DNA of 64,000 bases, taken from IMG/VR virus record IMGVR_UViG_3300041583_000345, positions 1 to 64,000 of that record; one strand, 5' to 3'. Positions 2,957 to 48,780 of the stretch are shown here, piece by piece. The DNA comes from a virus. The stretch's first letter is position 1; every line of letters begins with the position of its first letter. The translations under genes were made by a program, and so were the position numbers. Below the pieces are notes generated by a model. It did no database searches. It was not told the DNA's origin and was given only the letters and a program-made list of their open reading frames with translations.

Positions 2957-4118
2957 ATAAAGTAAATTATTTTAGTCTCTTTACAAATTTATTTACTACT
3001 AACTCCTGGTACTCTAGTCCTAAGTGTTCTTTATCTTCTGCTAAGCTGTAATCCGATGCTTTACTATGTACTGTTAAATTAAAGATAGGAACTCTACCAT
3101 ACCTTTACTGCTTCTAGTAACTTCCAGGTATCTATTGCTTCATCTGATAGTTCTAATTGATGGTAGTGTTCCAGTGCTGAATTTAAAGCTTGTTGCCATT
3201 GGGATATAGGAAGAGATATCTCAAACATTTTATCAGCGTTTTCAAAACTAACCTCAAAAAGCAAAGCAGATCTTCTATTACTCTGCATAGCTTTTTCTAT
3301 CCCACTCACAATTGCATCAGTAACATTCTTTTTTTTATTACTAAATAGAGTTTCAAACTCAGCTGTATTTTTGAAATGTAATTTTGTCATTATTTTTTGC
3401 TTCCTGAAATATTCTTTAATTTAATCTGGATTGAACTATCAATAATTTTATTGGTATACTTGCTAGGTACCTGCTTATTAGTCCCCCACATAAAGACTGG
3501 TCCCAGATATTCACGTGTTACCATAGGAACTTCTACTGTACTAAGTCTAGTATATTCTGGTTCAGTAATTCTTCTTTCACCGTCAAAGGATCTAAAGTCT
3601 CTTCCGGTTACTCTATGCCAGCCAACTACTGGGTGGTTTATTTCTAAACTACCTGCTAAATTAAAATCATAGTATAGCTTTTCAGTTTCACCTCTTTTTT
3701 CTGCCATAACCTTTATTTTTTATCTTACATAAAGATACGAACTATTAAGCAAGGGGCATACCTTTTGGAGAAACTTTTTTACTTATTTCTAAAAGTAATT
3801 CAGCTTCATTTTTAAACATTTCATCCTCTATTCTTTGCCTATCCTCACTTATAGCGCTTTTCATTATATTTTGTATACTGGTGGAGAATCTGCCACTAAT
3901 ATCGTTTGTATAATAAAATTTATGGTTTGTAATTTTTATTGTACTATCCGTTATAAGTACGAAATAGTTTAATTCTTTATTATCAATATAATAATGCTCC
4001 CTTAAAGGGTCCATCAGTAACTTAGTTTTAGGGTGTTGTAGTAGGTTACTTATAATAAATTTTAATTGTATCTCTTTTGGAGTGGGTGGGTATTTTGAAA
4101 ATATTGATCTCATATTAT

Positions 4119-5912: not shown

Positions 5913-6022
5913 ATAACCTTTTATTGATTTATTTTACTAAATATAAGAACTATTATTCAAGGAATCAACTTTATAGTGAGAAACTTTTACCGCAATTGTT
6001 ACATTCTCTTAGTTCCGTATTA

Positions 6023-20744: not shown

Positions 20745-21182
20745 TTAAATATACGAAATATCTTTTATAAAGCCAACTTTTTCAAATAGTTTTTGGGCTT
20801 TAATATTCCAGTCATCTGTACATAGAGTAATAGTAGGAAAGTTAATATAGTTTAAACACCCTTTAATAAACTTTTCTCCGTATCCATCAGGTCTTCTAGG
20901 ATTAACAAATAAGTTGTAAAGGTAATTTTTTTCAAACCAAACATGGGCGAGTGGTCCATCTTGATCTACTCCTATAACTAAATCATGGCCTCTTTCTAGT
21001 CTCTCTCTAGCAATATCGAGATCCCACATCTCTGTCCAGTATACGTTACCATTAAATCCATTAATACTAGTTTGAATAGTATTTTCTAACGAACAAAATG
21101 TATGAGGTTGTATCCAAACTATTCCCTGGATAGGAGTATAACTTTGCTTATTAATAAGGGTGTACCAGCTTTTATTCTCCAC
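20745..21182 (-). CDS. GNAT family N-acetyltransferase
   Basis: NLFVNPRR..GYG and NIKAQKLFEKVGF motifs. Confidence 0.75.
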   Translation of the reverse strand: MENKSWYTLINKQSYTPIQGIVWIQPHTFCSLENTIQTSINGFNGNVYWTEMWDLDIARERLERGHDLVIGVDQDGPLAHVWFEKNYLYNLFVNPRRPDGYGEKFIKGCLNYINFPTITLCTDDWNIKAQKLFEKVGFIKDISYI

Positions 21183-26446: not shown

Positions 26447-26487
26447 TTATAACCTTTCTAAGTCTACTTAAATATACGAATTATATT

Positions 26488-41227: not shown

Positions 41228-41836
41228 TTATTTCTTTTTCGGTTCTGTTAATTCTCGTATTACTTTTAATTTAAATTCTGATATTTTTGAAGTGGGTATT
41301 TTGTATTTGTTTGCAATTTCTTTTACTATCTCCTGTGATATGCGGTTTCTTACTTCAGGTTTAAATTCTTTTATTTTCTCTCCTGATAGTACCTTGCGGG
41401 CTTCTAGTACTGCTAAAGTCCAATTTTGATTTTCTGCCTTATTGTCTGTATATTTACTTTCAACTAATTTATTGGGTTTTTGAGCTATTTCTACTGTGAC
41501 TTTCTTTTTACTAATTAGGGACTCACTTTTATTTACTACCTCTACAGTAACTTTCTTACTAACTTCTAAGACAAATTCATCTTGGTAGGGTACAAAATAG
41601 GTGTCTTCATCTACAATTACTTCTAGTTTTAATGTTCCTTTTAAGTGTTCTGGAAGTAATTTTAATTTTCCTAAATGGACTTTGCAGTTCCCTTCGGAGT
41701 TAATTACTCCGTTAAAAAGTAAACTTTGGTTGCTATTTTCCAATATTAAACGAGCTTTAGCGTTACTTAAATCTGCTCCTTCAACCGCTATTTTACATTC
41801 AAAATCTTCCTCTTTATCTTTATATATTATATGCAT
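41228..41836 (-). CDS. hypothetical protein
   Basis: 202-aa ORF downstream of a TATTTATA motif. Confidence 0.6.
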   Translation of the reverse strand: MHIIYKDKEEDFECKIAVEGADLSNAKARLILENSNQSLLFNGVINSEGNCKVHLGKLKLLPEHLKGTLKLEVIVDEDTYFVPYQDEFVLEVSKKVTVEVVNKSESLISKKKVTVEIAQKPNKLVESKYTDNKAENQNWTLAVLEARKVLSGEKIKEFKPEVRNRISQEIVKEIANKYKIPTSKISEFKLKVIRELTEPKKK

Positions 41837-41912
41837 AATACTGTTTAGTTACCTTATTTAATATAAATAGGAAGAAACTTATGTTATACCTTTTTTAAAG
41901 GGGTTTTAATAT

Positions 41913-41930
41913 TTAACATATTGGATAATA
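41913..41930 (-). promoter_or_regulatory. 3' trailer complementary to the tRNA-array leaders
   Basis: TATTATCCAATATGTTAA pairs with TTGACATATTGGATAATA at 47689-47706 (18 bp, one G-U). Confidence 0.75.
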
Positions 41931-41938
41931 TTAAAAAG

Positions 41939-42011
41939 TGGTCCCTACAGGATTCGAACCTGTGACCTTCTCGTTATGAGCGAGCTGCTCTACCATCTGA
42001 GCTAAGAGACC
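41939..42011 (-). tRNA. tRNA CAT (Ile2-like body or elongator Met)
   Basis: GGTCTCTTAGCTCAG...CTCATAA...GTTCGAATCC...GGGACCA. Confidence 0.9.
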
Positions 42012-42070
42012 TGGTCTTTTTTAGAGTTTTGAAATAGAACTCAAGGATATATCGACCTATAAAACTATTT

Positions 42071-42146
42071 TGGTAGCGGGGGTCAGACTCGAACTGACGA
42101 CCTTTGGGTTATGAGCCCAACGAGCTGCCTACTGCTCTACCCCGCG
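42071..42146 (-). tRNA. tRNA-fMet(CAT)
   Basis: C1:A72 mismatch, three G-C pairs in anticodon stem, encoded CCA. Confidence 0.95.
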
Positions 42147-42150
42147 ATTT

Positions 42151-42264
42151 GCTAATTAAAAAGGATTCGAACCTTAATCCTGTCTCTACTTTCATTCCCG
42201 TCATCTGCTAAACACAGATCGTAAAACTACTCCTTTCTGCTGTGCACCATTACACCGTAATTAA
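42151..42264 (-). ncRNA. tRNA-like RNA 1 (acceptor, D-like and T arms; expanded interior)
   Basis: TTAATTA/TAATTAG stem, GTG-TAATGGTG-CAC, AAGG-TTCGAAT-CCTT; 114 nt. Confidence 0.6.
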
Positions 42265-42311
42265 TCAAAGGATTGCAATCCTCCATAGTAAAGTTAATTA
42301 CTCTTTACATT

Positions 42312-42385
42312 TGCGGCCTATGAGAGTTTCAATCTCTCTACTCCATCGTGACAGGATGGGATGATAGTCAGTTCACCAATAGGCC
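42312..42385 (-). tRNA. tRNA-Asp(GTC)
   Basis: CCATC-CTGTCAC-GATGG; T-loop ATTGAAA. Confidence 0.9.
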
Positions 42386-42600
42386 AGTTTCACTTAGTGA
42401 GGATACTAAGCTAGATTTTAACGGTTTTATTTACTTTCAAACAAACACATTAGTGTCTTACCACATTAAAAAAAGTCAAATTACTGGGGGCTATATTACC
42501 TGCCTTTCTTCCTCAGAGGGTGGCATTAAGGATGTCCACCCTATTATCCCTATTTATTTTATAGACTCCATAGATGTCTTATTAAGTACCTCTTACTTAT

Positions 42601-42675
42601 TGTGGGCCGGACGAGGTTCGAACTCGCATACTTTTCGTTGCAAACGAAGTGCTAAGCCAGTTTAGCTACCGGGCC
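42601..42675 (-). tRNA. tRNA-Ala(TGC) lacking G3:U70
   Basis: CTTCG-TTTGCAA-CGAAA; acceptor GGCCCGG/CCGGCCC gives C3:C70. Confidence 0.85.
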
Positions 42676-42875
42676 AAATTATTAAAAACTCTTTGTACAA
42701 ATTTCAGTGTAATATCACGCTCTTAACGCTATGAACCTAATCACCAATACCTTTACAATAAACACAACTGCTGATACAGTCTATAGCTATCCACTTTCAA
42801 TTGTGGTCTTTCTCGCCTTTTCTATCAGGGAATGCTTTCACTATGTCTATCTTTAAGCAAAGAATTTTTAATAAA

Positions 42876-42949
42876 AGTACTCCTGGAGGGTATCGATCCC
42901 TCTACTCTACCGTGAAAGGGTAGTGACTTAGCCAGTTGTCGACAGGAGC
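42876..42949 (-). tRNA. tRNA-Glu(TTC)
   Basis: CTACC-CTTTCAC-GGTAG; T-loop ATCGATA. Confidence 0.9.
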
Positions 42950-43100
42950 ATTTGTAACTTTTGTAATATTCCCAGAGTTACCAACTGTACCAACCTACGA
43001 TTTGGAGAGCATCCACGCCTATATGAGTGTACCCGAAGGTATTTGTTATTTCAACTCATATCTGTAATCTCTATCTTCGATCCCTTGTACTTCGGGCTTT

Positions 43101-43174
43101 TGAGCGAATAGAGGGAATCAGACCCTCGTCCTCTGGGTGGAAGCCAGATATAATAATCACTATACTATATTCGC
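43101..43174 (-). tRNA. tRNA-Gly(TCC)
   Basis: TCTGG-CTTCCAC-CCAGA; U73; T-loop TCTGATT. Confidence 0.88.
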
Positions 43175-43235
43175 ATTAAAAGTAAACATTGACCTCCCTC
43201 GGTGATATTATCGTTAAGCGAGGTTAATTTACTTT

Positions 43236-43309
43236 TGAGCCTCTACAAGGAATCGAACCCTGTTCCTCCGGGTACAAACCGGGCACATTACCATTTATGC
43301 TTTAGAGGC
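43236..43309 (-). tRNA. tRNA-Thr(TGT), copy 1
   Basis: CCCGG-TTTGTAC-CCGGA. Confidence 0.9.
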
Positions 43310-43507
43310 AAAATAAAATAAGTTTTTTGTACCCAATGTACATCATATCGGTATTACCCGAGGTTTGATTTTTTATTTTTTACCTCTTTGTGCACTTGGT
43401 AAAAAATATTATTCCAAACTCTACCCTCCCTAGTCTCTATTTCGAAATTCACCTAGCTATCTGGGATTTATATACCGAGGGGTTATACCTCAGTCTTCAC
43501 TTACTTT

Positions 43508-43581
43508 TGAGCCTCTACAAGGAATCGAACCCTGTTCCTCCGGGTACAAACCGGGCACATTACCATTTATGCTTTAGAGGC
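43508..43581 (-). tRNA. tRNA-Thr(TGT), copy 2 (identical)
   Basis: Exact repeat of 43236-43309, 272 bp away. Confidence 0.9.
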
Positions 43582-43645
43582 AGTTAAGTTAGAATGGTGA
43601 TTTGAATACCTTTTAAGTTCTCCTTCGAACGTCTAACTTATATTT

Positions 43646-43800
43646 TGTAGCCCTAGTTGGAATCGAACCAACCTTTGATAAGTTACTTACTCTAATGTTT
43701 TAACTTTTCTCTTCAAACTAGTATAAGAAGTGTTAAACCAAAAGCCGTAACGTTATCCCACTGATAGTAGTAGGAGCGATCCACTACTATATATAGGACC
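43646..43800 (-). ncRNA. tRNA-like RNA 2 (acceptor stem and T-arm closing a 125-nt structured insert)
   Basis: GGTCCTA/TAGGGCT, GTTGG-TTCGATT-CCAAC, 3' ACA. Confidence 0.7.
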
Positions 43801-43810
43801 ATTTTAATTT

Positions 43811-43915
43811 TGTAGCTATGTTAGGATTCGAACCTAATCCGGCTTTACAATTCTAAGTGAACTTATCGTTAAACTTAACCCTGGAGAGGTGCTATCAACT
43901 AATGATTTCACAGCT
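43811..43915 (-). ncRNA. tRNA-like RNA 3
   Basis: AGCTGTG/CATAGCT, TTAGG-TTCGAAT-CCTAA, 3' ACA; no canonical anticodon arm. Confidence 0.7.
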
Positions 43916-43922
43916 ATAATTT

Positions 43923-43997
43923 TGTACTCGTGGCAGGACTCGAACCTGCAAAAGACCGTTTCTAAGACGGCCGTGTATACCATTCCACCACACGAGC
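43923..43997 (-). tRNA. tRNA-Leu(TAG), short variable loop
   Basis: GCCGT-CTTAGAA-ACGGT; 5-nt variable loop. Confidence 0.9.
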
Positions 43998-44000
43998 AAT

Positions 44001-44069
44001 TTATCCAATATGTCAATGAACCTATCTTTATTATATATAAATATACGAACTATTTACTGTATATCCTAA
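44001..44069 (-). promoter_or_regulatory. internal tRNA-array promoter (TTAG-N16-TTCGTATATTTA) with boxA-like leader GTTCATTGACATATTGGATAA
   Basis: Same arrangement as 47689-47760. Confidence 0.75.
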
Positions 44070-44087
44070 TTTTTTTATGTTTATTTT

Positions 44088-44159
44088 TGAGAGTAAGGTA
44101 GGAATCGAACCTACTCTGTTGGTTTTGCAAACCAACTGTTCTCCAAGAACAACTCACTC
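44088..44159 (-). tRNA. tRNA-Cys(GCA)
   Basis: TTGGT-TTGCAAA-ACCAA; U73. Confidence 0.88.
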
Positions 44160-44165
44160 ATTTAC

Positions 44166-44675
44166 CTAGAATAATAGGTAAGGTTTCCACTCTTCAGGTA
44201 TAAAACTTGTTTTCTTTAATAACATTAAGTAGTGTGGTCTTTTTGGTTTAGGTATTTCCCTACCGTATTCTTTTAATGTTAAATTTGCTTTTTCGTTATT
44301 ACAAATTTTACAAGCAGTTACTAAGTTATCCCAAGTGTTTGGTCCTCCTTTTGATTGTGGTACTACGTGATCTAATGTAAGTGTTTTTCTGTTATTACAA
44401 CCGCAGTATACGCATTCATGTCCATCTCTTTTAAATACATTATCTCTTGTTAGAGCTACTTTCTGGTATTCTAGTTTTACATAAGTGTAGACTCTAATAA
44501 CAGATGGTTTAAAAATTTCTAGTTTGGGGTTTACAACTCCAAATGTTTCGGGGTGTTCAACTACTACATCAGCATTACCTTTATACGAAATCACGAAAGC
44601 TCTTTCGGTAGTAATGATGCTTCTTGCAATGTAGCTTGAATCAACCACTAATGTTTTGTCATAACGATTTTTCAT
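44166..44675 (-). CDS. HNH endonuclease (McrA-like)
   Basis: RDGHECVYCG...TLDHVVPQSKGGPNTWDNLVTACKICN. Confidence 0.92.
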   Translation of the reverse strand: MKNRYDKTLVVDSSYIARSIITTERAFVISYKGNADVVVEHPETFGVVNPKLEIFKPSVIRVYTYVKLEYQKVALTRDNVFKRDGHECVYCGCNNRKTLTLDHVVPQSKGGPNTWDNLVTACKICNNEKANLTLKEYGREIPKPKRPHYLMLLKKTSFIPEEWKPYLLF

Positions 44676-44698
44676 GAGTTAATAATTAAGTTAATGTT

Positions 44699-44769
44699 TG
44701 CGCAACCCCAAGGAATCGAACCTTGTCCTATAGTTTTGGAGACTATTTGGCTACCTTAGCCCGAGAAGC
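44699..44769 (-). tRNA. tRNA-Trp(CCA)
   Basis: ATAGT-CTCCAAA-ACTAT; two U-U pairs in acceptor stem. Confidence 0.85.
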
Positions 44770-44777
44770 ATTTTGTT

Positions 44778-44851
44778 TGAACCTCCACCAAGAATCGAAC
44801 TTGGATCTAAACTTTAGAAGAGTTTTGTTATGTCCATTTAACTATGGAGGT
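44778..44851 (-). tRNA. tRNA-Arg(TCT)
   Basis: AAACT-CTTCTAA-AGTTT. Confidence 0.9.
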
Positions 44852-44854
44852 AGT

Positions 44855-44928
44855 TGAGGCTTTAGAGAGATTCGAACTCCCATTTTTCGGTTCGTAGCCG
44901 AAGGTTCTGTCCATTGAACTATAAAGCC
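44855..44928 (-). tRNA. tRNA-Arg(ACG)
   Basis: TTCGG-CTACGAA-CCGAA. Confidence 0.92.
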
Positions 44929-44931
44929 ATT

Positions 44932-45006
44932 TGTACCCATAGTAGGATTCGAACCTACAGCTTACAGGGCTTAAACCTGTTGTGTTTACCGTTTCACCAT
45001 ATGGGC
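44932..45006 (-). tRNA. tRNA-Leu(TAA), short variable loop
   Basis: ACAGG-TTTAAGC-CCTGT; 5-nt variable loop. Confidence 0.9.
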
Positions 45007-45666
45007 ATTTTTTTTCATTTCACGAGTCTTCCTAAGACTTTCTCTTATCTTTTTTTTAGTTTCCTCACTCCTTGGTTTTCCGTATTGTGAGTTTTTATTC
45101 CCACACCCCTGTCCTATTTTAGCTTTTTTCATCTTAAGTATAGTCTCTTTCGAGTGTTTTTTTCCTAGAAAAGAGTTATGAATATGTCCGCTTTTTTTTA
45201 GACCTCTTTTTATTTTTTTAGAGATAGTGTCTTTGTCCTGCTGTGTTAGATTTTTTACCCACTCTTTTTTTGTATCTTTAAGTTTTAGTATATATGCCTC
45301 TCTCCAATCTACGTCCTGTTGTAATTTCTGTTTTCTAATCTCATTTGCACACCTAGAAGTTTCTATACTAAATCCATTTCCTCCTGTTATTAAGTTTAAG
45401 CAGTTTACACTGTTTAGATCCTGTTCTGTTATTAACTGCATTTCAGCTTGAACTAGGTCTTCTCTTGAATTAAAATACTTAATTATCTCAACCTTAAAAT
45501 TGTCTCTACCGTACTTAGTTACTTCGTAGCGTAGTCTTGTACCGCTTCCTAAATATCCGTCATCGATACGGTTAGTTGAATGCATTCCTAGGTAATATCT
45601 ACTGTTTATTATATTTGTTGTTTTATAAGTAAAGTGGTATTTCTTCTTTTTTGAATAGTTAGCCAT
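44986..45666 (-). mobile_element. GIY-YIG (Seg-like) homing endonuclease with NUMOD3 motifs
   Basis: FTYKTTN...YYLGMHST...YLGSG; FLGKKHSKET and YGKPRSEETKKKI. Confidence 0.88.
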
Positions 45667-45711
45667 TTATGTTTGTTTATTATAAATAGCTAACTGTTTC
45701 AAAAAGTATAC

Positions 45712-45785
45712 TGGGTGTAAGGAAGGTATCGATCCTTCGTCTTTTGATTCACAGTCAAACATTCTACCATTGAACTACAAACACC
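45712..45785 (-). tRNA. tRNA-His(GTG)
   Basis: TTTGA-CTGTGAA-TCAAA; G-1:C73; T-loop ATCGATA. Confidence 0.9.
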
Positions 45786-45903
45786 ATGTTTGTAAGGCTC
45801 CCACTTTCCTTACTTGTCAGTCTATAGTTGTCTCTTACGAGGTGCGGGTGACTGAATTATCCTCCACATATTTCTATGTTTGAACCCGAGCGGTTTTAAA
45901 TAT

Positions 45904-45977
45904 AGTACCAATAGATGGAATTGAACCATCAACCTACTCCGTATGAAAGAGCCGCTCTACCATTGAGCTATATTGGT
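45904..45977 (-). tRNA. tRNA-Met(CAT)
   Basis: GCTCT-TTCATAC-GGAGT. Confidence 0.85.
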
Positions 45978-45981
45978 ATTT

Positions 45982-46069
45982 TGAGGAAGAAATCGGAATC
46001 GAACCGAATGCCTTTTACAGCACGATTATCTTAGCAGGATACCCTAATCACCATCATAGTTTATCTTCC
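45982..46069 (-). tRNA. tRNA-Ser(GCT)
   Basis: TATC-CTGCTAA-GATA; long variable arm. Confidence 0.88.
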
Positions 46070-46072
46070 TTT

Positions 46073-46148
46073 TGTCGATCTAGCAGGATTTGAACCTGCG
46101 GCTTATTCGGTATCAGCGAATTACTCTACCGGGCTGAGTTATAGATCG
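46073..46148 (-). tRNA. tRNA-Ile(GAT)
   Basis: ATTCG-CTGATAC-CGAAT. Confidence 0.92.
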
Positions 46149-46278
46149 AAGTTGATTACAACCTGACTCCTTTCGAACTTTGAGAAACTCGTATCATTCA
46201 ATTTTTGTAATCAATCCTGTATGAAGAGTTTTTAATACGATCACTAGAACTCAAGGGCAGGACTTCCTATAAACTAAT

Positions 46279-46355
46279 TGGAGGGTTGGGTGGGGGTCGA
46301 ACCCACGGAATCTTTTACTTAACAGGCAAATGCTTTACCACTTAGCTACCAACCC
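46279..46355 (-). tRNA. tRNA-Asn(GTT)
   Basis: TTTGC-CTGTTAA-GTAAA; encoded CCA. Confidence 0.92.
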
Positions 46356-46441
46356 TGAATTTAGTCTCTCCTAATAGTCACCCCTCTATAAGCTTCTCAG
46401 TTATGGTTCTGTGGGGTAGAAGCAACTAACTACGATGTAGT

Positions 46442-46522
46442 TGTTACGATTAAAGGACTCGAACCTTCATTGGGTATATCTACCGGTACTGCCAATGGAA
46501 CAGTCAACGCACCTGCATCGTA
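46442..46522 (-). ncRNA. tRNA-like RNA 4
   Basis: TACGAT/ATCGTA stem, GAAGG-TTCGAGT-CCTTT, 3' ACA; CATTGG/CCAATG arm with 18-nt loop in place of an anticodon loop. Confidence 0.65.
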
Positions 46523-46528
46523 ATATGA

Positions 46529-46604
46529 TGGTGGAATCTGAAGGAATCGAACCTTCTCCTTTAGTTCTTCAGACTAGCGTGCGAACCATCTACACAAAAA
46601 TTCC
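46529..46604 (-). tRNA. tRNA-Phe(GAA)
   Basis: CTAGT-CTGAAGA-ACTAA; encoded CCA. Confidence 0.9.
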
Positions 46605-46750
46605 ATATCCCTTCGTTGCTACTTACACTTTCTAGCTAGTGTGCTTTCACCCTTTCCCGTTTATTTTATATCGTCGTACTAATGGGGCTTACGCCACGAT
46701 ATTGGTTTGGCTTTTTTCCTGTTTCTTTCTTTCAGTAGCCTTCTGCCCGG

Positions 46751-46831
46751 TGGGGCAAGGTGGATTCGAACCACTCCCTTGCGGACGAGATTTACAGTCT
46801 CGCTGCCGTATCCGAACGACTTTCTCTCCCC
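46751..46831 (-). tRNA. tRNA-Tyr(GTA)
   Basis: CGAGA-CTGTAAA-TCTCG; variable arm CC-GCAA-GG. Confidence 0.88.
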
Positions 46832-46835
46832 TTTG

Positions 46836-46925
46836 ATTTTGTAATAGGACTTGAACCTATACGAAGACCTTGCGGTTACTTCAACCCTTGGAATGGGTCG
46901 TGTATCCCAATTTCACCACACAAAA
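46836..46925 (-). tRNA. atypical class II tRNA: Leu-like body, TCC (Gly) anticodon
   Basis: D arm GTG-AAATTGGGATA-CAC, GACCC-ATTCCAA-GGGTT, 20-nt variable arm, U73. Confidence 0.7.
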
Positions 46926-47022
46926 CAACTATCTTTAAGAAGACTGTAATCTCCAAATAAATAGACTAGTAAATGCAATTAACGATATTACAGTACCGTA
47001 TTTATATACACCCAACTAATTT

Positions 47023-47095
47023 TGTACCTCGTAGTGGAATCGAACCACTGCCAATTGCATGTAAAACAATTACGCTTCCATTACGCCAACGAGGC
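47023..47095 (-). tRNA. tRNA-Val(TAC)
   Basis: ATTGT-TTTACAT-GCAAT. Confidence 0.9.
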
Positions 47096-47152
47096 AAATT
47101 TAATTCTAAGCTTCGGACTTGATTCCTTCTATGAATTAATAACAGTCTCTTT

Positions 47153-47225
47153 TGTGCCCCTTGTAGGTAACGATCCTACTTCCCGATATTAAAAGTATCG
47201 TGCTTCACCTTAAAGCTTAAAGGGC
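47153..47225 (-). tRNA. tRNA-Lys(TTT)
   Basis: CGATA-CTTTTAA-TATCG; T-loop ATCGTTA. Confidence 0.9.
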
Positions 47226-47282
47226 AATTCCGCATTTCTAAGATAGGTGGCATTTTTACACAGCCAGCGGACCTATTTGTGG

Positions 47283-47357
47283 TGGTCGGGTAGAGAAGAG
47301 TTGAACTTCCCGCCTCTCGCTTCCAAAGCGAGCTTCTCACCCCGAGAATACTACCCG
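47283..47357 (-). tRNA. tRNA-Pro(TGG)
   Basis: CTCGC-TTTGGAA-GCGAG; encoded CCA. Confidence 0.92.
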
Positions 47358-47426
47358 TATTAATCTACTTTTACCCTGGCTATATATGGCATTTCATATC
47401 TTTTACCCAGGCTATTTTGTAGATTA

Positions 47427-47500
47427 TGTTAGTATACCAAGATTCGAACTTGGGCTATTTGATTCAAAGTCAAATGTGTTAACCGCTACACTATATACTA
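47427..47500 (-). tRNA. tRNA-Gln(TTG)
   Basis: TTTGA-CTTTGAA-TCAAA; U1:A72. Confidence 0.92.
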
Positions 47501-47596
47501 ATTTAAAAACTACTTACACCTAATAAAGAAATCTCATCTTTTCTTCGCCCAGGGACGAATTAGTTTCATTGACTTAGGCGAATTACAGTAGTTTTT

Positions 47597-47687
47597 TGAG
47601 GAAGGTGTGGGATTCGAACCCACGGGTGCTTTAACACACCTCCAGTTTTCAAGACTGGTGCAATTAGCCGGACTCTGCCAACCTTCC
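47597..47687 (-). tRNA. tRNA-Ser(TGA)
   Basis: CCAGT-CTTGAAA-ACTGG; long variable arm. Confidence 0.93.
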
Positions 47688-47688
47688 T

Positions 47689-47760
47689 TATTATCCAATA
47701 TGTCAATGAACTTTAATTTCTTATAATGTAAATATACGAACTATATTTCACACCTCCTAA
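47689..47760 (-). promoter_or_regulatory. tRNA-array promoter (TTAG-N16-TTCGTATATTTA) with boxA-like leader; near-duplicate promoter at 47921-47952
   Basis: Seen directly; the -33 hexamer differs from the GTTG class but the 16-nt spacing is the same. Confidence 0.75.
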
Positions 47761-47973
47761 TCTTTTATGTCAAGTTTTTAACTTCTTTTTTTAGCCTTTC
47801 ATGATAGGTTTTGTTTTTTTCGATAAAATATGTTTCCATGTCTCTACCTTTCCATCTTTCAGCTAACATTTTAAATACTTTAGTGTCTTTAAATTTTACC
47901 ATATCTTTAATTTCAATACGTAAATATACGAACTATATTTCACATCTCCTAATTTTTTTACACTTACTTTAAT

Positions 47974-48004
47974 AAAAAAACCCGAATCTTTTGGATCCGG
48001 GTTT
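47974..48004 (-). terminator. intrinsic terminator downstream of the leader ORF
   Basis: AAACCCGGATC-CAAAA-GATTCGGGTTT (11 bp) followed by a U tract. Confidence 0.88.
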
Positions 48005-48031
48005 AGTTTTGGTTTGATATGTTTTATTCTA

Positions 48032-48184
48032 TCAACTTATACTATTCCCGGATATGTATCTCGGCTGCTTATATTCATTATTGGCTAACATAAAATCTGT
48101 AATATCGCCACATACTGAACTCGCCCATATAATGGACTGTATCACTGTTTGTAAGAGTGAGTGTATGTTTGTAATAGTTTTCAT
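48032..48184 (-). CDS. 50-aa leader peptide, candidate attenuator
   Basis: MKTITNIHSLLQTVIQSIIWASSVCGDITDFMLANNEYKQPRYISGNSIS; own promoter at 48204-48236; ATCCGGG in codons 44-46 pairs with the terminator 5' arm. Confidence 0.75.
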   Translation of the reverse strand: MKTITNIHSLLQTVIQSIIWASSVCGDITDFMLANNEYKQPRYISGNSIS

Positions 48185-48252
48185 TGTTTCTTTTTATCTT
48201 TAATAAATATACGAACTTTATCTTTTCAGTCCAACTTTATTTTAAATGTTTT

Positions 48253-48780
48253 TTATATAGTAATTTTACCTTTCACACCAGGTACCATTTGTTTAATTTG
48301 TTCTTTAGAGTATTTTTTAGAAATGGGGGTGTTTTTTAAATAAAGATCACCTACTACTGTTAAATCTTGGGGGAGGGAGGTTATTGGGGTATTATTTAAA
48401 TAAAGATAACCTACTACTGTTAAACCTTGGGGGAGGGAGGTTATTGGAGTATTTTCTAAATCAAGAGAACCCCCTACTGTTAAGTCTTTAGGTAATGCGG
48501 TGATAGGAGTATATGATAAATAAAGATAACCTCCTACTGTTAAACCTTGAGGTAGCGAGGTGATTTTGCTCCCATATAAATCAAGATTACCTTTTACTTT
48601 TAAATCTTGAGGTAGGGAGGTTATTGGTGTACCTGCTAAATCAAGATCATTTTTACCCCCATCCTTCATATATTGTTGGATTTTCTTTTGCGTAGCAATT
48701 AAAAAGTTCTTAGTACGTTCTTCAGGGGAACGTCTAGGGACTAATATTTTATTTTCTAATATGTCTATTAATTTTATCAT
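48253..48780 (-). CDS. 20-aa LRR-like repeat protein, 6 units
   Basis: GGxLxLxxTPITSLPQGLTV units; shared N- and C-caps. Confidence 0.88.
   Translation of the reverse strand: MIKLIDILENKILVPRRSPEERTKNFLIATQKKIQQYMKDGGKNDLDLAGTPITSLPQDLKVKGNLDLYGSKITSLPQGLTVGGYLYLSYTPITALPKDLTVGGSLDLENTPITSLPQGLTVVGYLYLNNTPITSLPQDLTVVGDLYLKNTPISKKYSKEQIKQMVPGVKGKITI

Follow-up and report, generated by a model that had tools for sequence, protein, structure and literature searches.

Arrays of tRNA genes are common in phages. Their RNA is structured, is not translated, and runs to several kilobases, and how it avoids Rho and comes to be cut into tRNAs is largely unexplained. The question is raised by the virus of record IMGVR_UViG_3300041583_000345, a single contig of 121,930 bp (34.6% G+C; 74% complete), whose first 64,000 nucleotides, the whole stretch of DNA analyzed here, we call the window. 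The window carries an array of 25 tRNA genes that begins with tRNA-Ser(tga) and ends with tRNA-Met(cat). A preliminary description had proposed that the phage treats this array like an rRNA (rrn) operon, with a boxA-like motif in its leaders and a leader-trailer helix around it. We found that both starts of the array carry the boxA element that precedes the 23S gene in Flavobacteriaceae and that its end carries a matching trailer. From these sequence signals, we consider it likely that the phage dresses its tRNA array as pre-23S rRNA. Since the block has a host pre-23S signal at both starts and a matching end, its transcription and trimming are probably the work of the host's rRNA machinery.

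Both transcription units of the array open with the same leader

Coordinates are window positions, and the array, its leaders, and its trailer are all read on the minus strand, on which the genes in the array region of the window also lie. The elements at issue are as follows.

47729-47744, minus strand: promoter P1 of the array, a Bacteroidota-type −7 box within a shared phage motif, ATAGTTCGTATATTTA, with a presumed start site
47696-47711, minus strand: boxA-type element of transcription unit 1, GTTCATTGACATATTG; boxA proper, GTTCATTGACA, is 47711-47701
47711-47691, minus strand: leader 1, the 21-mer GTTCATTGACATATTGGATAA, 3 nt before tRNA-Ser(tga) (start, 47687)
47689-47706, minus strand: leader strand of the helix, TTGACATATTGGATAATA, overlapping the 3′ half of boxA and ending 1 nt before tRNA-Ser
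41938-47687, minus strand: the array of 25 tRNA genes, called by ARAGORN and confirmed by Rfam
44038-44053, minus strand: internal promoter P2, in which ATAGTTCGTATATTTA and its −7 motif recur unchanged; a close relative (L077) is arranged alike
44001-44021, minus strand: leader 2, again GTTCATTGACATATTGGATAA, 3 nt before tRNA-Leu(tag) (start, 43997); its helix strand is 44016-44001
41913-41930, minus strand: trailer strand, TATTATCCAATATGTTAA, 7 to 8 nt past the last tRNA-Met (end, 41938/41939); the record's only inverted copy

The claim that both tRNA units open with one leader held, the 21-mer being present at 47711-47691 and at 44021-44001, in each case 16 to 17 nt downstream of the promoter motif. 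The 21 nt are identical between the two units, whereas the stretches between promoter and leader differ, which argues for constraint rather than recent duplication. A search of the whole 121,930-bp record for the 16-mer core with at most one mismatch found three sites only, the two leaders and the inverted trailer copy, and the boxA core GTTC[AT]TTGA[AC]A was found in the two leaders only. The 122-kb record holds three copies only, and their position precisely at the array's two starts and its end supports the rrn-like reading.

The 41-nt leader is essentially unstructured (−1.6 kcal/mol), with no boxB hairpin beside boxA, and the tRNA follows the 21-mer at a distance of only 3 nt; no separate boxC was found at the leaders. 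We rejected the reading of TTGACA as part of a sigma-70 promoter, for there is no matching −10 element on the minus strand and promoter-like sites were no commoner than in shuffled sequence.

The promoter motif ATAGTTCGTATATTTA occurs 11 times in the record (at most two mismatches), always on the minus (coding) strand and upstream of genes, and it looks like the phage's main promoter class of the Bacteroidota (−33/−7) type. The copies span window positions 2924-53237 (for example, 3730-3745, 5938-5953, 20746-20761, 26469-26484, and 48204-48219) plus record position 75690, and GTTG is frequently seen about 20 nt upstream of them. Among the 11 copies, boxA follows the motif only at the two tRNA promoters. 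Just upstream of the array lie a strong intrinsic terminator (47978-48004) and a third copy of the motif, at 47921-47936 on the minus strand and without boxA; read-through from this region (47921-48004) would enter the array upstream of P1.

A trailer behind the last tRNA pairs with both leaders

We counted helix length as the longest contiguous run of base pairs, G-U pairs included, and used 200 shuffled trailers as the control. The far leader (47706-47689) pairs with the trailer (41930-41913) over 18 contiguous base pairs, including one G-U, and the internal leader (44016-44001) pairs with it over 16, exactly as the preliminary description had counted. Shuffled trailers averaged 7.9 to 8.1 bp, and none of the 200 matched the observed helix in length (P = 0.005, the lowest value that 200 shuffles allow). 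When leader and trailer were cofolded with their flanks, exactly the predicted helix formed, with a gain of −17.1 kcal/mol for the far leader and −14.9 kcal/mol for the internal one, compared with −5.0 ± 2.2 and −5.8 ± 2.8 kcal/mol, respectively, for shuffled trailers. The helix covers half of boxA, so that Nus binding and pairing must be sequential.

The trailer had also been described as sitting largely in the loop of a 10-bp hairpin. This structure can be drawn:

41904-41936, minus strand: optional local A-U hairpin of 10 bp, TTTTAATATT/AATATTAAAA, pairing 41936-41927 with 41913-41904

It consists of A-U pairs only, however, and the local fold of lowest energy (−6.7 kcal/mol; z = −1.3 against shuffles) takes another register. 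The long-range helix outcompetes the hairpin in the cofold, and the 10 bp are not kept in relatives; the local hairpin is probably of no importance. The suggestion of loop closure with a circular junction likewise found no support. We also rejected the trailer as an intrinsic terminator in this phage, since the window has no terminator-like site behind the array and the local hairpin is weak.

The leader matches the pre-23S boxA element of Flavobacteriaceae rRNA operons

What had been described as an rrn-like design with a boxA-like motif became an identity when host operons were compared: the first 16 nt of the phage leader match 16 of 16 positions of an element in the 16S-23S spacers of Flavobacteriaceae. 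A version that is somewhat less conserved stands in the 16S leaders of the same family, behind a −7 promoter box. The 21-mer was found with at most three mismatches in 92 of 151 Flavobacteriaceae genomes, with its first 16 nt almost invariant and with copy numbers resembling those of rrn operons (for example, 8 in genome G008; this and the L numbers below are our own handles). A scan for TTCNTTGACATATTGGATAA over 185,579 species genomes returned 34 matches, and those in Bacteroidota with a detectable 16S gene lay 1.86 to 2.04 kb downstream of the 16S start. The exact 20-mer is present in the 16S-23S spacer of Capnocytophaga and Chitinophagaceae. In one locus examined with Rfam (L122), the motif stands between the spacer tRNAs and 23S, and the inverse-like TTTTCCAATATGTCAC lies between 23S and 5S, some 20 nt past the former; a Capnocytophaga locus (L132) has the exact phage 21-mer before 23S and CTTATCCAATGGAGTCAAT after it.

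To the 18 Flavobacteriaceae operons that we fetched, in which the rRNAs were located by BLAST, we added four other loci to give 22 Bacteroidota operons. In all 22, the element lies 67 to 171 nt before 23S, and from TTGACATATTG onward it pairs with a segment 12 to 145 nt after 23S, at −21 to −33 kcal/mol. Covariation is seen in the variable part of this host helix (AAAAAAGATACAT/ATGTATCTTTTTT, GGGACAGG/CCTGTCCC, and GGATAAGATATC/GGTGTCTTATCC). Most of the 18 fetched operons have a stalk that begins at TTGACATATTG and ends in CAATATGTTAA; the latter is the end of the post-23S trailer in most of their marine members and also the core of the phage trailer. Thus, in the comparison with host rrn operons proposed at the outset, the host pre-23S helix and that of the phage proved to agree in element, register, trailer core, and G-U pair (TTGAC/GTTAA). 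In the single 16S leader that showed a clear helix (L204; that of L199 was weak), pairing starts after boxA rather than within it, so the phage design is of the pre-23S type. The variable part of the phage element, GGATAA, is absent from all 18 operons, which indicates that the element is not a recent copy.

By our own count, the phage boxA matches the consensus GYTCTTTAANA at 9 of 11 positions, that consensus being gammaproteobacterial (PMC5725501). The phage 12-mer AGUUCAUUGACA fits published boxA sequences; the Aquifex 12-mer, for example, is GGCUCCUUGGCA (PMC3177189).

Host tRNA operons were rejected as the model for the phage array: the non-rrn matches that we inspected in Flavobacteriaceae were coding sequence or 16S leaders. 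A 780-bp contig of low coverage in an Algoriphagus metagenome-assembled genome (L120) has tRNA-Arg(tct), a boxA leader, tRNA-Leu(taa), tRNA-Pro, and tRNA-Met; it is probably a fragment of a phage array binned with a bacterial genome and not a host tRNA operon.

Related arrays keep the trailer, and variant leaders have compensating trailers

We scanned IMG/VR for the exact 16-mer, leaving the trailer unconstrained, and obtained more than 119 stretches, 61 of which have the same context. In about 45 distinct and diverse contigs, the order is a −7 box, 16 to 23 nt, the leader, 3 to 9 nt, tRNA-Ser(tga), about 20 tRNAs, and tRNA-Met(cat); among the motif copies listed from relatives, 35 of 62 have the −7 box 16 to 23 nt before the leader. 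Where the end of the array lay inside the fetched DNA, about 17 diverse arrays have the trailer core TTATCCAATAT(G), the complement of (C)ATATTGGATAA, 4 to 9 nt past the terminal tRNA-Met. Of 21 leader/trailer pairs, 16 form a contiguous helix of at least 10 bp. Four relatives (L001, L007, L072, and L075) have a strong intrinsic terminator behind the trailer, which places the trailer inside the transcript. Among the variants listed from related strains, substitutions crowd both sides of the trailer, and none falls within 41912-41928.

When we scanned again, this time for leaders in which GTTCATTGACATATTG is followed by a different base, we obtained 69 stretches. Among them are three variant leader classes in tRNA arrays whose trailers are changed to match, one class shifting the register of the helix:

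L258: leader TGACATATTGATA, compensating trailer TATCAATATGTTA
L262: leader TATTGAATATTTT, compensating trailer AAAATATTCAATA
L216: leader ATATTGAAATAAAA, compensating trailer TTTTATTTTAATAT

Covariation of this kind had been named as a check on the rrn-like proposal. The complementarity on which that proposal depended proved to be conserved, both in the trailers kept by relatives and in these compensating classes. Two single-base trailer variants (L043 and L062) keep the pairing as G-U.

The exact 16-nt element also occurs, in leader-like intergenic positions, in viral contigs with no nearby tRNA (L221, L248, L254, L228, L230, L252, L267, L245, and L261), and Bacteroidota phages may use an rrn-type boxA for protein-coding operons too. 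In eight relatives (L010, L016, L026, L037, L055, L064, L072, and L097), a sequence resembling a tRNA T-arm and 3′ acceptor, ending in GGTTCGAGTCCTACCTGCTCCACA, stands directly before the leader (about 40 nt upstream). ARAGORN did not call it, and it recalls the host order of spacer tRNA-Ala followed by boxA.

Weighing the alternatives

Several observations weigh against the pre-23S reading. At 18 bp, the phage helix is shorter than the 20 to 30 bp of host stalks, and because it takes up half of boxA, Nus binding and pairing exclude each other on those bases. The near-invariance of the leader makes base-by-base covariation thin within the main phage class. In two single-base trailer variants (L054 and L073), a mismatch inside the helix is left uncompensated; so is one of two changes in the closest relative (L077/L100), the other of which falls at the end of the helix; and one full array with a leader (L048) has no complementary trailer. 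None of the 24 runs in which we detected DNA of this phage, all of them salt-lake DNA metagenomes, is an RNA run.

The shortness of the helix for RNase III and its overlap with boxA, which phage and host 23S stalk share, would also suit a different role for the trailer. BoxA would still antiterminate, and the trailer, rather than forming a processing stalk, would strip NusB-S10 from the leader through the TTGACA half, ending antitermination so that the next terminator works, or would only shield the ends from exonucleases. The intrinsic terminators of four relatives, which stand about 10 to 15 nt after the trailer, fit such a role. In this window, however, no terminator stands behind the trailer, and the host pre-23S helix has the same overlap although it is a classical processing stalk after which 5S is still transcribed. 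We regard this role as unlikely.

That the three copies act as DNA sites, whether as an operator, as sites of recombination, or as inverted repeats at the ends of a mobile tRNA cassette, would account for an array bracketed by two direct copies and one inverted copy, with homing endonucleases within it and with insertions and deletions among related strains. It is contradicted by the host copies, which lie inside rrn transcripts and whose partner covaries as RNA, and by the phage trailer and two variants, in which pairing is preserved only by way of G-U, a relation meaningless in DNA. The variant classes alter both strands together, one with a shift of register, and TTGACA is not part of a sigma-70-type promoter on the minus strand. 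A mobile element with terminal inverted repeats fares no better: the repeats differ by a G-U-type change, the promoters lie outside the supposed element, and a further copy, in direct orientation, falls within the array. Transposase and integrase are absent, the array interior holding only the HNH and NUMOD3/GIY-YIG-like homing endonucleases. We consider a role as DNA sites extremely improbable. Scarcely more credible is the idea that the motifs are a relic without function, left behind when a host rrn spacer and 23S flank were captured long ago. The sequence identity with host rrn elements and the tRNA-like 3′ end before the leader of some relatives, placed as tRNA-Ala is before the host spacer boxA, are what a relic would leave. 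A relic would hardly have kept the 21-mer identical in both units beside diverged spacers, kept the leader in some 45 contigs with differing flanks, kept the trailer independently, and held 41912-41928 free of listed substitutions between crowded sides; moreover, GGATAA was not seen in the 18 fetched Flavobacteriaceae operons, so the copy is not recent.

The reading of the array as a mimic of pre-23S rRNA is further supported by the gene content of phage and host: the phage record, which is 74% complete, was found to have no RNase III, NusB, or NusG gene, whereas NusB and RNase III are present in all five Flavobacteriaceae genomes checked.

A model for transcription and trimming of the array

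If the array is handled as pre-23S rRNA, boxA would emerge on the nascent RNA after each promoter. Host NusB-S10 (NusE) would most likely bind it and, together with NusA and NusG, turn RNA polymerase into a fast, termination-resistant form. Such a polymerase could cross the 5.8 kb of untranslated, highly structured RNA that would otherwise be exposed to Rho, and the internal promoter and leader would reload the antitermination signal after the endonuclease genes. The newly made trailer would then pair with a leader from inside boxA onward, over 18 bp with the far copy or 16 bp with the internal one, mimicking the host's pairing of the 5′ and 3′ flanks of 23S. The helix would be a likely substrate for host RNase III or would else tie together and protect both ends, after which RNase P, acting 1 nt beyond the helix, and 3′-processing enzymes would release the tRNAs. 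Nus factor binding, antitermination, and RNase III cleavage at the phage array are thus what we infer from its resemblance to the host operon.

A broader proposal, conceivable if rather doubtful, is that this represents a general, unpublished phage strategy found across bacterial phyla. The rrn complex would stay tethered to boxA, loop out the array, and deliver the trailer to the leader cotranscriptionally; invasion of boxA by the helix would release the Nus factors, so that completion of the array would itself switch antitermination off.

Relation to known systems

The closest counterpart is the rrn operon of Bacteroidota, specifically Flavobacteriaceae. It has the 16-nt GTTCATTGACATATTG in common with the phage, its helix likewise begins within boxA, at TTGACA, and the two agree in trailer core (CAATATGTTAA) and G-U pair; a −7 promoter stands shortly before boxA in host 16S leaders and in the phage alike. 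The phage, however, encloses 25 tRNAs and two endonuclease open reading frames where the host encloses 23S, and it has two leaders for one trailer. Its helix measures 16 to 18 bp and ends 1 nt from the first tRNA, compared with about 20 to 30 bp and a distance of 67 to 171 nt from 23S in the host, and its GGATAA variable part, unmatched in the Flavobacteriaceae operons fetched, is specific to the phage lineage.

Assembly of the rrn antitermination complex requires boxA, and boxA alone suffices for it. In Escherichia coli, the rrn transcription antitermination complex (rrnTAC) comprises boxA with NusA, NusB, NusE, NusG, SuhB, and S4, a second set of elements lies upstream of 23S, and the leader-trailer helices, formed by the flanks of each rRNA, hold the RNase III site (PMC10250234, PMC6614797, PMC4807359). 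One model has NusB-tethered boxA keep the leader at the RNA exit until the trailer is met (PMC10250234). The phage array shares with this operon a boxA just after the promoter, long-range pairing of the flanks, and an untranslated unit; it differs in that its boxA departs from the consensus at 2 of 11 positions and is itself part of the helix and in that no boxB or separate boxC was found. The nut sites of phage lambda (boxA-boxB with protein N) likewise place a host-type boxA in a phage to make host polymerase resistant to termination. Since the leader described here has no adjacent boxB, there is no sign of an N-like factor, and the unit is noncoding with a trailer helix, it resembles the host rrn system and not the N system.

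BoxA also acts outside rrn operons, as at suhB (PMC5725501). The phage arrangement resembles that at these loci and at CRISPR arrays, where an rrn-type boxA before a long untranslated small-RNA array prevents Rho termination, but those loci are cellular and come without a described leader-trailer helix, whereas in the present case a phage carries the boxA and tRNAs are the cargo. The boxA-dependent antitermination of CRISPR arrays was reportedly described by Stringer et al. in eLife in 2020. The tRNA cluster of phage T4 is similar in that clustered, cotranscribed tRNA genes are processed by host RNases; we know of no boxA or flanking long-range helix described for it. Our literature search turned up no account of phage tRNA arrays flanked by boxA or by leader-trailer helices. 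The machinery, then, is known; the carrier, a phage, and the cargo, a tRNA array, are new.

Other features of the array and the phage

Two homing endonuclease genes, identified with Pfam, interrupt the array.

44166-44675, minus strand: HNH homing endonuclease gene
44986-45666, minus strand: NUMOD3 homing endonuclease gene, with a weak, below-cutoff GIY-YIG match

At its 3′ end, the NUMOD3 open reading frame overlaps the start of tRNA-Leu(taa) (44933-45006, minus strand) by about 20 nt. Within the array, related strains are distinguished by insertions and deletions. About 700 nt at the NUMOD3 gene are missing in some (45009 joined to 45712), as would be expected of a mobile homing endonuclease gene. 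tRNA-Thr(tgt) is present twice (43237-43309 and 43509-43581, minus strand), within a 272-nt tandem duplication (43228-43590), and contigs of related salt-lake strains skip exactly 272 nt (43228 joined to 43501), so that the duplication is polymorphic. Rfam adds a few further tRNA-like elements inside the array to the 25 genes called by ARAGORN; at a permissive threshold over 41500-48400, it returned tRNAs and chance matches only, and no family covered leader or trailer. Against known phage genomes, megablast gave a sole match of 44 nt of tRNA, which indicates that this collection holds no close cultured relative. The phage is an uncultured, salt-lake phage of Flavobacteriaceae-type bacteria.

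Implications

These results offer a testable answer to the question posed by phage tRNA arrays: the phage would borrow the solution that the host uses for its own rRNA, a loading signal combined with a processing helix. They extend the biology of boxA in Bacteroidota, where it has hardly been studied, and 18 bp beside a tRNA would provide a natural, minimal leader-trailer system for the boxA-tethering model of long-range helix formation. A boxA specific to a host family could also serve as a signature for assigning hosts to uncultured phages, and in this phage, the A at boxA position 5 points to a host in the Flavobacteriaceae.

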